This document shows, one piece after another, positions 10,296-15,437 of a DNA stretch of 18,377 bases. Both the position numbers and the translations under genes were made by a program. Under the pieces are notes generated by a model. It saw only the letters and a list, made by a program, of their open reading frames with translations, had not been told where the DNA came from and searched no databases. The stretch comes from Promethearchaeia archaeon (GTDB lineage Archaea > Asgardarchaeota > Lokiarchaeia > Sigyniarchaeales > SOKP01). The first letter of the stretch is position 1, and every line of letters begins with the position of its first letter. The DNA lies in the NCBI GenBank assembly GCA_046497275.1, contig JAWOFX010000104.1:1-18377 (forward strand). The letters are read 5' to 3'.

Positions 10296-12026
10296 ATGTC
10301 AGAAATGGAAAGACAGAATGAAATTATTATTGATATAACGCAATTTCCTCATCATTTATTACTTCCTTCTACGAGTAATATTATAAAATTAAGAATCACC
10401 AATAATTCTGATAAACAAAAGAATTTGAAACTCGAGGCATCGGGACAAAATCTTGATGTCCGTTTGATTAGTTTAACTGAAAAAACCTTTTCTATTCCTC
10501 CAAAAGATAATCAAGTTATCGAAATTGGATTAGTTCCTAAAGCGAATGGAAATGGTATAATATCAATTAATATAGAATGGTTTAAAAAAGTCCAATTTAC
10601 TGTAAAAGTCCAGAAAATAAGAGAAAACGTCCCGGAGAAAAAGCTAGATAAAATTTTGAATACATATGAATACTCATCAAATCTACAAACCGAACCAATC
10701 ACAGCTGATAAATTTTCATTAGAATTATCAAACAGTGAAATTAAGAAATTAACCAAAAATATCTCCAGAATTAAAGAGGAGCTAAAATTAACACCTTCCG
10801 AGGAGGCTATTAAAACTGTCGAGTTGTATAAAGAACTAGATGTTTGCCAAAAAACACTTGTCAAAGGATGTATAAATAATAAAGAATTTGATGAGGCATT
10901 ATCAATTATAAAAACATTTCCAAATGAAGAGAATAAAAAAGATTTTTTGAGAAACGTTATACGTGCGAATTTTTTTATTGATTTTGAAACTATGCTTCAA
11001 GCAATTGAGTTAATTGAAAATATCCCAGACAAGCAAAAATTATTAGAAACTGTTTTTCTAGACTTGATGAAAAGGAAAACTGATAACGCATTAGTTCTTT
11101 TGGAATATATCAAACAAGACAGTGATTTCTATGTTAAGGCTTTATTTCATATCGCTCGAAATTATTTGAAGAATAATCAGATCGAAAAAACTGAATCATT
11201 ATTAATAAAGATTGTCAATCTAGCGATCCAGAATGGAATTGAAAAATATAATCTTTTAAAAGATGTTATCTATACAGTTGCTGAGATAATTTCCCCTAAG
11301 AAAGCGGACGAAATGATACATTTAATAAAAGATCACCCATTAAAAGAAAAAGTTACAAAAGATTTATTTGATGATATTTATATAATGGCTGATGAACTTA
11401 GAGAAAAGATTGAATCTGAATTAATTGGATCATATAATTATAGTTTAAATATATCAATTGAAGAAGGAAATAATATCGCTAAATTTGCAAATACAGGGGG
11501 GAATATCAGTTCCAATATTTTGGAAGGTCAATTTAATTTCGAAAGTTTGCTTGTCTCTTTATTTAGTCATGAATTTAGTCTCTTTCCTACAATTGAGCAT
11601 TTATATACTGACTTAGCTAATAACTCAGAAAAATCATTAGGTTACGTTATATTTCCTTCACAAAAAAGTCTCAAAGATGATGAAAAAACTGTAATATCTA
11701 CCGTTTTAAAAAAATTAGTCGTAAATAAATCGCAAGCAAATAATATGATGCTCTTTAATATCGATTTTATACCATATTTAGGAAAACCTACATTAATAAT
11801 TGGATCTGATCAAAGGATTGGAACTCAATTGAAGCAGAAATTACAGTCATTTAATCAATCTGTAAATATGAGTATTAATAATGATTTGTTTGAAGGAGGA
11901 AAAACTATAGAATATATAAAGAATATCTTCTCTGGAAAAACAATTACTCCAATTAATCTTGTCTTTTCCTATGAATTCATTAATCAGTATGATTTATTTA
12001 GGGATATTTTTATAAATATAATATAG
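10296..12026 (+). CDS. Hypothetical multidomain protein: Ig-like beta-sandwich (about aa 8-100), alpha-solenoid/TPR-like region (about aa 130-375) and C-terminal alpha/beta domain
   Basis: The N-terminus has alternating hydrophobic strands (IKLRITNNS...FSIPPK...IEIGLVP...GIISINIE). The middle is amphipathic helical repeats (e.g. FYVKALFHIARNYLKNNQIEKTESLLIKIV). The 576-aa ORF has normal codon usage. Domain calls are by eye. Confidence 0.75.
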   Translation: MSEMERQNEIIIDITQFPHHLLLPSTSNIIKLRITNNSDKQKNLKLEASGQNLDVRLISLTEKTFSIPPKDNQVIEIGLVPKANGNGIISINIEWFKKVQFTVKVQKIRENVPEKKLDKILNTYEYSSNLQTEPITADKFSLELSNSEIKKLTKNISRIKEELKLTPSEEAIKTVELYKELDVCQKTLVKGCINNKEFDEALSIIKTFPNEENKKDFLRNVIRANFFIDFETMLQAIELIENIPDKQKLLETVFLDLMKRKTDNALVLLEYIKQDSDFYVKALFHIARNYLKNNQIEKTESLLIKIVNLAIQNGIEKYNLLKDVIYTVAEIISPKKADEMIHLIKDHPLKEKVTKDLFDDIYIMADELREKIESELIGSYNYSLNISIEEGNNIAKFANTGGNISSNILEGQFNFESLLVSLFSHEFSLFPTIEHLYTDLANNSEKSLGYVIFPSQKSLKDDEKTVISTVLKKLVVNKSQANNMMLFNIDFIPYLGKPTLIIGSDQRIGTQLKQKLQSFNQSVNMSINNDLFEGGKTIEYIKNIFSGKTITPINLVFSYEFINQYDLFRDIFINII

Positions 12027-12058
12027 TATTATTTTTAACTTCACCAAAATTGCACAGA

Positions 12059-12072
12059 TTTTATTAATAAAA
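12059..12072 (+). promoter_or_regulatory. Perfect 14-bp palindrome / TATA-like element upstream of the GCS2-like ligase
   Basis: TTTTATTAATAAAA is self-complementary and ends 26 nt before the ATG at 12099. That spacing is compatible with a leaderless or short-leader transcript. Confidence 0.35.
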
Positions 12073-12098
12073 CCGACTAACTTTATAGGGAATATTCA

Positions 12099-13805: not shown

Positions 13806-13835
13806 ATAGATCTATATTTTACTAGTAAATAATGA

Positions 13836-13843
13836 TTTATATT
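13836..13843 (+). promoter_or_regulatory. Possible TATA box for the amidohydrolase
   Basis: TTTATATT lies about 47 nt upstream of the ATG at 13890. Confidence 0.25.
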
Positions 13844-13889
13844 AACAATATTTTAATTATATCGTAATCTTACTAAAACGAGTATTATC

Positions 13890-15437
13890 ATGTTAACAGC
13901 CACAATTGAAGAAAATGGTAAAACAAGGAAAGAACATATTTTTGTGATTGATGCACATTCTCATCTCGGGAAAGATGAGGATGGCGCTACTATGATGAAT
14001 CCTTTAGCCCCTGGGAGTGGTAGCTTCGATTTCTGGAGTAAGATACAAGGAAGAATCATAGATGATTGGAAAGAATCAGGTCAACAATCGTTTAATACAA
14101 GATTGAATGGGATGAATGTAAAACTCTCATTTTTTTTTGAGCCTTATCCATTTACAGATAAATTATTTACCGAATTACAAAAATTAGGCGGCCGGTTTTC
14201 AGATATTAAGGATAAATTAAAATTTAATAGCTTAATAGATATGGCAGTGGTGTTTCCATTTCAAGATGTGTTTCGTGATAAAGATCCAGAAGCGCTTTAT
14301 CGTGCTAGCAATAAAAATATCTCACGATTTTCAACTAAAATGCCTTTTTCTATGAAAATTATTGGATATTGCAGGGTTGATCCCCTAGAAGGACAAAAAG
14401 CTGTAAATGAGGTAAAATATGGTCGAGAAGTTCTTGGTTTACGAGGGTTAAAATTACATCCTCGTTCTGAGGGATGGGTAGATGCTGTCGTTTCTGGAGA
14501 AGCAGTACCTATATTAGTAGAAGCTGCGAAGCATTCAATGCCAATAATTTTTGATACAAGAGGGAAAAAGACCATAATGGATTTATCTGTTTTAATTCAG
14601 AAAACAAGGAGTGTTCTTAAGAGTCAGCATCCTGAACTATTACCTCACTTTAAAGCAATCATTGCGCACTTTGCTCAAGGAAATGTTGGAGATTATGAAG
14701 TGTATAACGCAGTGGTACAACCAAATACATATGGGGATCTTTCAATGCTTCATGGAGAAGGAGCAAAAAACTTCTTTAAGGATTTTCGCGAATGGTTTGA
14801 AAGAAATCAAAAAATAAATGTTGATGATAGAACATGGTCCCAATATCTCTTATTTGCCACAGATTATCCCTATTTTGGAGAGATTCATGCTGAAAAATTA
14901 TTAATTAATCTCTTTAATAAAGATTTTTTTGATAATGGAGGAACTCTGGAAGATATTAGAAACATATTAGGAATGAATCAGATTCGTATTTTACCCGAAT
15001 ATAACATGAAAGATACCGCATCTTATAAGAATTCCTATGCAACCACAATAATCTCCAATCCCAATTATAATGGAGATCAAAGGAGCACCTATGAAATGGC
15101 AATTAGAGCTCTCGCAAAATTAATTGCTGATAACAGGATTGATATTAAAAAATTTCTACTAGAATTTAATGAAAATTGGAATGATTTGAGTAGGAATGCG
15201 TTATTATCGACTATTAAAAAGTCAACTAAAGAAGAAATTCCTCTATATTTACTTGAAATGATTAACAATCAAGTATCTCTCATTTCTCCCTTAAAATCAT
15301 ATGAAAATTGGAAGAAATTTGGGTATAAATATTTTGACCCCGAGGATAGAGACTTTTTCTCATCGTTGATGAGACATTATTATTTAGCAGATAATGATCA
15401 AGATGTAGAAAAAAGTCTCTTAGAAGTATTCAGATAA
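13890..15437 (+). CDS. Amidohydrolase_2-family TIM-barrel metallohydrolase with a C-terminal extension
   Basis: Motifs IDAHSHLG (H23/H25), GYCRVDP, GLRGLKLHP (K188/H190), PIIFDT (D222), IIAHF (H260) and LLFATDYPY (D325). About 145 aa follow the barrel. Confidence 0.85.
   Translation: MLTATIEENGKTRKEHIFVIDAHSHLGKDEDGATMMNPLAPGSGSFDFWSKIQGRIIDDWKESGQQSFNTRLNGMNVKLSFFFEPYPFTDKLFTELQKLGGRFSDIKDKLKFNSLIDMAVVFPFQDVFRDKDPEALYRASNKNISRFSTKMPFSMKIIGYCRVDPLEGQKAVNEVKYGREVLGLRGLKLHPRSEGWVDAVVSGEAVPILVEAAKHSMPIIFDTRGKKTIMDLSVLIQKTRSVLKSQHPELLPHFKAIIAHFAQGNVGDYEVYNAVVQPNTYGDLSMLHGEGAKNFFKDFREWFERNQKINVDDRTWSQYLLFATDYPYFGEIHAEKLLINLFNKDFFDNGGTLEDIRNILGMNQIRILPEYNMKDTASYKNSYATTIISNPNYNGDQRSTYEMAIRALAKLIADNRIDIKKFLLEFNENWNDLSRNALLSTIKKSTKEEIPLYLLEMINNQVSLISPLKSYENWKKFGYKYFDPEDRDFFSSLMRHYYLADNDQDVEKSLLEVFR

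Follow-up and report, generated by a model that had tools for sequence, protein, structure and literature searches.

Which role could be served by three adjacent genes of an Asgard archaeon that encode a carboxylate-amine ligase, a metal-dependent hydrolase and a protein built like an adaptor? This question is raised by contig JAWOFX010000104.1 of a Promethearchaeia archaeon (assembly GCA_046497275.1), analysed here over 18,377 nt of low-GC (~30%) archaeal DNA, a stretch hereafter called the window. Close homologues of the proteins it encodes carry the names Promethearchaeota, Lokiarchaeota or Lokiarchaeia in their sources. A preliminary description, drawn from the letters alone, had singled out three large co-oriented genes separated by only 72 and 84 nt and proposed that they act together. 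This layout is confirmed on the + strand, where open reading frames (ORFs) were found for an apparently non-catalytic scaffold or adaptor of 576 aa (10296-12026), a YbdK/GCS2-type ATP-dependent carboxylate-amine ligase of 568 aa (12099-13805) and a 515-aa putative metal-dependent hydrolase of Amidohydro_2 type (13890-15437), the two AT-rich spacers lying at 12027-12098 (72 nt) and 13806-13889 (84 nt). Since orthologues exist in related genomes (identities of 49-89% for the ligase, 37-78% for the hydrolase and 22-96% for the scaffold), these are real genes rather than chance ORFs. The comparisons reported below indicate that the trio is the "split" form, as it occurs in Lokiarchaeia, of a module of four parts that is spread across the Asgard archaea. 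Its fourth member, a Cdc48N-vWA MIDAS protein encoded elsewhere in this genome, had escaped the preliminary description.

Gene order and co-inheritance

The proposal that the three genes form one unit is borne out by neighbourhood analysis, which reveals synteny in Lokiarchaeia, Helarchaeota and Heimdallarchaeota. The ligase gene is present in 33 of 41 related genomes and lies adjacent to the hydrolase gene in 27 of these 33; in most of the 27, the gene just before the ligase is that of the scaffold. Gene order and strand are the same throughout. Within family f1, to which the flanking genes are confined as conserved neighbours, the order uppS-scaffold-ligase-hydrolase-coiled coil-Roadblock recurs in four of the five loci outside the window, and the Roadblock gene was not found in the f1 locus L019. 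Only the trio is kept, and not its flanks, in L014 (genus g8 of f1) and in families f2 and f3. Further away, a Heimdallarchaeota locus encodes a vWA protein, a 399-aa protein, the ligase and an Amidohydro_2 protein, and a Helarchaeota locus encodes a vWA-containing protein, a protein with an Ig and a C-domain, the ligase and the hydrolase.

In a phylum-wide survey of an even sample of 151 Asgard genomes, 63 were found to carry the ligase and 64 the hydrolase. The two enzymes are spread over an identical set of eight families, and each is present in 23 of 52 genera. Wherever a genome of family f10 or f21 yields two matches to the ligase, the hydrolase is matched two or three times. Among ten distant Asgard loci, nine encode the hydrolase and a long-form ligase within 12 kb. 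In eight loci a vWA gene accompanies them; none was seen in L050, and only the ligase was seen in L052. It is thus very probable that the scaffold, ligase and hydrolase genes constitute one functional unit.

Transcript data are compatible with co-transcription of the trio. Contigs 99-100% identical to the window, from four salt-lake metatranscriptome libraries (two studies), cover parts of all three genes, and both internal junctions are bridged, that of scaffold and ligase by contig X6 record 13 (11837-12580) and that of ligase and hydrolase by contig X7 record 22 (13636-14193). The uppS-scaffold and hydrolase-coiled-coil spacers are not covered among the RNA contigs listed, from which no conclusion is drawn. 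As for the TATA-like elements that had been noted before the ligase and hydrolase genes, they cannot be judged because the intergenic DNA here is too AT-rich.

A fourth, unlinked partner

The vWA protein of the Heimdallarchaeota and Helarchaeota loci has a 41%-identical orthologue in the genome studied here (G000), encoded on contig C180 (L039 7694-9847) and unlinked to the trio. This protein of 717 aa matches the Pfam VWA domain (E 6e-9), gives weak Cdc48-N-like matches in its N-terminal part and carries the complete MIDAS motif DxSxS...T...D, with D489, S491, S493, T608 and D640 invariant in 13 sequences. When its profile was compared with PDB sequences, ArnB/VWA2, ITIH and double-psi barrels were matched, and DEPDC5 was not among the matches.

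The distribution of vWA orthologues follows that of the trio in most of the 41 relatives. None was found in genus g9, G005 and G006, all of which also have no ligase, and genus g14, which has no trio, yields only 22-25%-identical vWA matches. The exceptions are G011 and G040, where no vWA orthologue was found despite the presence of the ligase and the hydrolase (and, in G011, of the scaffold). Furthermore, the vWA gene adjoins the trio in G030, G034, G036 and G038, and in a paralogous set of G001 two vWA genes accompany a ligase and a hydrolase gene. Between the vWA and ligase genes of one paralogous locus lies a gene for an amidase of the neutral ceramidase family, and further vWA-ceramidase pairs were seen in G031 and G033. 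Judged from these distributions, the Cdc48N-vWA MIDAS protein is a fourth, co-inherited partner, and inheritance, duplication and loss are shared by the four components.

Active site and family of the ligase

The assignment of the two enzymes to GCS2-type ligases and amidohydrolases, already made in the preliminary description, holds. The ligase model (structure prediction with a 16-sequence alignment; predicted local distance difference test, pLDDT, 81.5) has a predicted glutamine synthetase (GS)-type fold in which the six-strand active-site cradle is present. The nearest structures are YbdK and plant glutamate-cysteine ligase (GCL), with scores of 22.8 for plant GCL, 18.8 for GshF, 18.1 for Dop, 17.1 for PafA and ~14 for glutamine synthetases. 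The Pfam GCS2 model (PF04107) scores 21.3 bits for a cut-off of 21 and covers residues 249-298 only; it scores 23.7 bits in a genome scan, according to which the ligase is the sole GCS2-family gene of the genome.

Altered active-site residues had been suspected in both enzymes, and this suspicion is not borne out. The GhExE signature, which corresponds to the Mg/ATP site of the superfamily (defined in PMC2588565), is found as G100-M-E102-M-E104 (12396-12410, + strand), is invariant and aligns with the GIELE of YbdK. More generally, a set of 16 orthologues and paralogues shows no variation at G100, E102, E104, E203, H257/H259 and E376/R378, which fall on YbdK motifs in the alignment. Because the GhExE, HxH and ExR motifs are both invariant and aligned to those of YbdK, the active site is canonical. 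The protein thus belongs to the YbdK/GCS2 type, its ATP/Mg site is intact, and it is likely to be an active amide ligase, whose chemistry, inferred by analogy with the superfamily, would be ATP-dependent amide formation via an acyl phosphate (PMC2588565, PMC7947786).

Both enzymes are, as had been noted, longer than canonical members. Compared with YbdK (~370 aa), the ligase has a Lys-rich tail and a C-terminal helical extension in addition. The tail (residues 1-52; 12099-12254, + strand) is predicted to be disordered (pLDDT <50) and begins with MG-x2-K(n); the consensus among aligned orthologues starts with MGxxKKKKKKK, and the tail columns are not strictly conserved. In the ligases of family f4 (L025 5659-7488, + strand; L028 5581-7401, - strand), a helical N-terminus replaces the Lys-rich tail, and that of L025 gives a weak MIT-domain match (E 1.8e-3), a hint of targeting to ESCRT-III-like partners.

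Could this ligase simply be an ordinary gamma-glutamylcysteine synthetase (GshA) that happens to lie beside unrelated genes? Its relatives are named "glutamate-cysteine ligase family protein" by their sources, and weak NCBIfam matches to GshA and YbdK models were indeed obtained. Their scores are 46.9 bits for the YbdK subfamily, whose curated cut-off is 176.4, and 13-33 bits for GshA equivalogs, whose cut-offs are 332-437. With 13-47 bits against cut-offs of 176-437, the ligase is not an orthologue of either enzyme. The extra N- and C-terminal parts also argue against a plain GshA, as do the physical linkage of the genes and a distribution across families that coincides with the hydrolase's and for the most part follows the vWA protein. 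We consider this explanation unlikely in the extreme.

Relatives, fusions and the question of defence

A search of 1.84 billion representative proteins with the ligase profile returned 457 proteins at E <= 1e-3, of which 96 at E <= 1e-30. Named members of the family are all from Asgard archaea (Loki, Hel, Heimdall, Hod, Odin, Asgardarchaeia, Thor and Freyarchaeum), except one from a Thermoplasmatota metagenome-assembled genome. Many relatives are 1,100-1,400 aa long with an N-terminal ligase domain, and some reach 2,200-3,800 aa. Among the domains fused or adjacent to the ligase domain are vWA, Zn ribbons and HhH/SAP, with weaker Pfam matches to Transglut_C-type Ig, MG2 and MIT; the vWA domain is fused to the ligase in P0172.

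Three loci illustrate this diversity. In L041 (1-10889), a vWA-ligase fusion of 962 aa stands at the edge of a defence-like island that contains genes for three N6/N4 DNA methylases, Mom, SLATT, QueC and QueF, a faint TGT-like match and a ThsB-type TIR gene. L040 (9001-25327) encodes a 2,783-aa protein with HhH and SAP motifs and a ligase domain near its C-terminus, preceded by a divergent vWA gene and followed by a gene for a 2,619-aa WD40-repeat protein. In G033 (L023 6645-10043, - strand), an ORF of 1,132 aa starts with 787 aa of helical structure, after which comes a ligase domain reduced to its C-terminal two-thirds (profile positions 221-560), with GhExE missing. A dead variant, a fusion and an assembly artefact are all conceivable.

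The position of the P0172 fusion among TIR, SLATT, Mom, QueC/QueF and DNA methylase genes, together with the paralogue expansions and the giant fusion proteins, could point to a conflict or defence system in which the set of vWA protein, ligase and hydrolase would detect an invader and then modify some target. PADLOC gave no family match for any of the four proteins, and both the stable position of the trio beside uppS/hmgS across f1 genera and its high conservation are atypical of defence islands. A defence role is therefore unlikely, and we give it little credence.

Metal site of the hydrolase

The Pfam Amidohydro_2 model (PF04909) matches the hydrolase of the window weakly (E 1.4e-3, 18.9 bits for a cut-off of 26.4). 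Its paralogue L030 scores 26.1 bits, the Heimdallarchaeota orthologue has a recorded Pfam Amidohydro_2 match (E <= 1e-5), and the neighbours of the hydrolase in a protein-language-model space (Atlas) are Amidohydro_2 clusters. No relative was detected when the hydrolase profile was compared with PDB sequences. Residues D21, H23, H25, K188, H190, H260 and D325 are invariant in 15 orthologues and paralogues, and the metal ligands of Amidohydro_2 proteins, HxH (strand 1), His, His and Asp (strand 8), are all present as H23, H25, H190, H260 and D325. The C-terminal extension amounts to ~140 aa beyond canonical members. From its residues, the hydrolase retains a full amidohydrolase-type metal site, and both enzymes of the module look active.

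Architecture of the scaffold

The first protein had been described as a multidomain Ig/solenoid protein. The AlphaFold model (pLDDT 87) agrees and adds an alpha/beta C-domain whose nature had been missed. In this model, residues 10-108 (10323-10619, + strand) form an ASH/PapD/MSP-type Ig sandwich, residues 117-361 (10644-11378, +) a TPR/SNAP-like helical repeat, and residues 388-576 (11457-12023, +) an alpha/beta domain whose closest predicted folds are N-formylglutamate amidohydrolase (FGase), the PghP-YndL poly-gamma-glutamate hydrolase and pyroglutamyl peptidase. The C-domain displays the motifs GGNISxN and D-x3-F-x-GG, and its invariant residues are G402, N407, P454, F532 and G535. Across 14 sequences, it has no invariant His, Glu, Asp or Cys, and neither the metal-binding His/Glu/His set nor the catalytic residue of FGase/PghP-type enzymes was found. 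For this reason, the C-domain looks like a catalytically dead Glu-amidase-like binding module, and the scaffold is probably non-catalytic.

The C-domain is at the same time the part of the scaffold that is conserved. In Helarchaeota, the orthologue (407 aa) consists of the Ig domain and the C-domain only, the helical repeat being absent, and in family f4 the scaffold is split, with the C-domain gene still directly upstream of the ligase gene; a scaffold orthologue occupies this position in all four families of the order. Furthermore, proteins of 217-263 aa from Thor-type, Freyarchaeum-type and other genomes, whose genes immediately precede those of long-form ligases, match the scaffold C-domain in profile-profile comparison (86.8% probability, E 4.3e-6, 175 columns), and D-x3-F-x-GG is common to both.

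Other leads on the scaffold were discarded or set aside. Whole-model Foldseek matches to alpha-2-macroglobulin, C3 and C5 (E 2e-8) suggested a relative of thioester proteins; this was rejected with a TM-score of only 0.13, a conserved Cys or CGEQ-like motif is missing, and the per-domain matches are generic Ig and helical ones. An hhalign comparison of the C-terminal regions of long ligases with the scaffold Ig domain reached only 41% probability and was not used for any claim. Finally, complex prediction for one truncated pair, ligase 53-568 with scaffold 388-576, gave a score of 0.00, which weighs neither way.

Genomic surroundings

Upstream of the trio, the window contains a near-complete archaeal (anhydromevalonate-type) mevalonate gene cluster (548-10021) composed of ubiX, ubiD, acnX-L, a DUF998 membrane gene, acnX-S, ipk, mvk, hmgS (a 542-aa HMG-CoA synthase) and uppS, of which uppS and hmgS remain beside the trio within family f1. 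Downstream are found a coiled-coil gene (15687-16424, + strand), a Roadblock/LC7 gene (16645-17109, +) and an SDR gene; the first two are conserved neighbours within f1 only and lie outside the core of the module. The Roadblock/LC7 protein (154 aa) also matches the LAMTOR3-type MAPKK1_Int family (E 1.1e-5) and is 96-97% identical between f1 genera, compared with 60-80% for neighbouring enzymes, an unusually strong conservation for a protein of this size. On contig C180 (L039 6183-15044), the vWA gene directly follows another Roadblock gene (7111-7503), and ~1.5 kb beyond the vWA gene come an actin-family gene (11299-12468) and a gene (12471-15044) whose product has a CHAT domain. In this genome, then, a Roadblock gene is close to either half of the module.

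A protein-directed amide or a metabolite?

The explanation that we favour, with a confidence just short of even, is that of an Asgard four-part module in which the ligase forms an amide, the adaptors hold a macromolecular substrate, and the hydrolase removes or processes the adduct. In this mechanism, the ligase would phosphorylate a carboxylate with ATP, most likely the gamma-carboxylate of Glu as in the whole superfamily, and join it to an amine to give an amide. The substrate, a protein or peptide, would be held or selected by the scaffold, through its dead Glu-amidase-like domain with the Ig and TPR parts, and by the vWA protein, possibly by way of an acidic residue coordinated to its MIDAS metal. 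The metal hydrolase would then remove the adduct or process it further. That the substrate is macromolecular rather than a metabolite, for which we see about equal chances either way, is suggested by the nature of the constant partners, which are protein-binding folds (ASH Ig, TPR, vWA and Cdc48N), by the domain fusions, and by the fact that no transporter or further metabolic enzyme recurs with the module in the loci examined. A "writer-eraser" role, as put forward in the preliminary description, is plausible. Its weakest step, the reversal of the ligase product by the hydrolase, is doubtful. That the module needs a hydrolase is suggested by the ceramidase-family amidase between vWA and ligase in one paralogous locus and by the vWA-ceramidase pairs of G031 and G033.

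A small-molecule pathway is a serious rival, albeit one we judge rather unlikely. The ligase would make a gamma-glutamyl or other amide metabolite (a thiol, a compatible solute or a cofactor precursor) or gamma-glutamylate an amine for catabolism, as in Puu/Ipu-type pathways; the Amidohydro_2 protein would perform the next step (decarboxylation, hydrolysis or ring opening), and the adaptors would only regulate or localise. The nearest structures of the ligase, its status as the only GCS2-family gene of the genome and the small aromatic or acidic substrates that PF04909 enzymes usually employ all fit such a pathway, and GCS2-like ligases are known to be paired with hydrolases or cyclotransferases in the chemistry of metabolites or peptides (PMC2588565). 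On the other hand, a metabolic function does not readily account for the lack of conserved transporter and further metabolic genes in the loci examined, for constant partners made of protein-binding folds and a dead amidase, or for fusions that join the ligase with vWA, HhH/SAP and Zn-ribbon domains (weak matches to Ig-like/MG2 also occur) and with giant proteins. In addition, within f1 the ligase is more conserved (73-89% identity) than the adjacent HMG-CoA synthase or UppS (60-73%).

Several points weigh against the four-part mechanism that we favour. Its substrate, product and interactions are hypothetical. Most of the characterised PF04909 enzymes are decarboxylases, lactonases or hydratases, and not amide hydrolases, which leaves an "eraser" of this kind with no known precedent in its family. 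A search in and around the trio revealed no small ORF resembling Pup. The ligase occurs without an adjacent hydrolase in family f4 and in the Thermoplasmatota copy. Lastly, the RNA contigs are no proof of a single transcript, and the libraries may contain carried-over DNA.

Comparison with known systems and significance

Compared with the known YbdK/GCS2 ligases (PF04107; E. coli YbdK 1r8g, Salmonella 1tt4 and plant GCL 2gwc), the Asgard ligase is only 17-20% identical, ~200 aa longer through its Lys-rich tail and family-specific C-terminal extension, and far below the NCBIfam equivalog cut-offs. It generally travels with the hydrolase, the vWA protein and the adaptor and is often part of fusions of 1,000-3,800 aa. 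The hydrolase resembles the TIM-barrel enzymes of Amidohydro_2 (PF04909) in its HxH, H, H and D ligands and through orthologues that match the Pfam model; it differs from them by its score below the Pfam cut-off, its additional C-terminal residues and the lack of a PDB relative by sequence profile.

At the level of the system, one parallel is with the co-inherited genes of PafA and Dop: the amide that a GS-fold ligase makes from the gamma-carboxylate of a Glu is undone there by an enzyme dedicated to this purpose (PMC7947786, PMC2588565). The Asgard ligase and hydrolase can be likened to this ligase-depupylase pair as co-inherited genes for a GS-fold ligase and a reversing enzyme, the reversal being only proposed here. 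Unlike in pupylation, no tag ORF of at least 20 aa ending in GGQ/GGE exists in 10000-15700, where the gaps between the genes measure only 72 and 84 nt, and PafA/Dop is not the closest structural family of the ligase. A second parallel is offered by the GCS2-like "new CAL" ligases, whose neighbours are a GAT-like peptidase or a gamma-glutamyl cyclotransferase (Iyer et al. 2008, PMC2588565). They share with the Asgard set a GCS2-sized ligase, a conserved neighbourhood with a gamma-glutamyl-cleaving enzyme (a putative one in the Asgard set) and the lack of a tag gene; they are bacterial, have other partner families and have no vWA or adaptor proteins, and the Asgard set is absent from that study. 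No description of an Asgard ligase/hydrolase/adaptor module was found in the literature searched.

No known group is more closely related to eukaryotes than the Asgard archaea, and biochemical studies exist for few of the systems peculiar to this lineage. The present analysis brings to light a highly conserved enzyme pair in ~40% of the sampled Asgard genomes (23 of 52 genera), associated with protein-binding adaptors, and defines its parts list: ligase, hydrolase, pseudo-amidase adaptor and vWA protein. Since both enzymes look active, the question is directly testable with recombinant proteins and mass spectrometry. A bolder scheme, which we regard as improbable, would be an Asgard-specific reversible protein modification in which the GCS2-type ligase writes a gamma-glutamyl-type amide, the Amidohydro_2 protein erases it, and the dead Glu-amidase domain and the Cdc48N-vWA protein act as readers or adaptors; with Roadblock genes near both the trio and the vWA gene in this genome, it could feed small-GTPase signalling inherited by eukaryotes. 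If the product proves to be a metabolite, the module would reveal an unknown Asgard cofactor or solute. If the protein-directed reading is true, such an amide tag would be the second prokaryotic analogue of ubiquitin-like tagging after pupylation.

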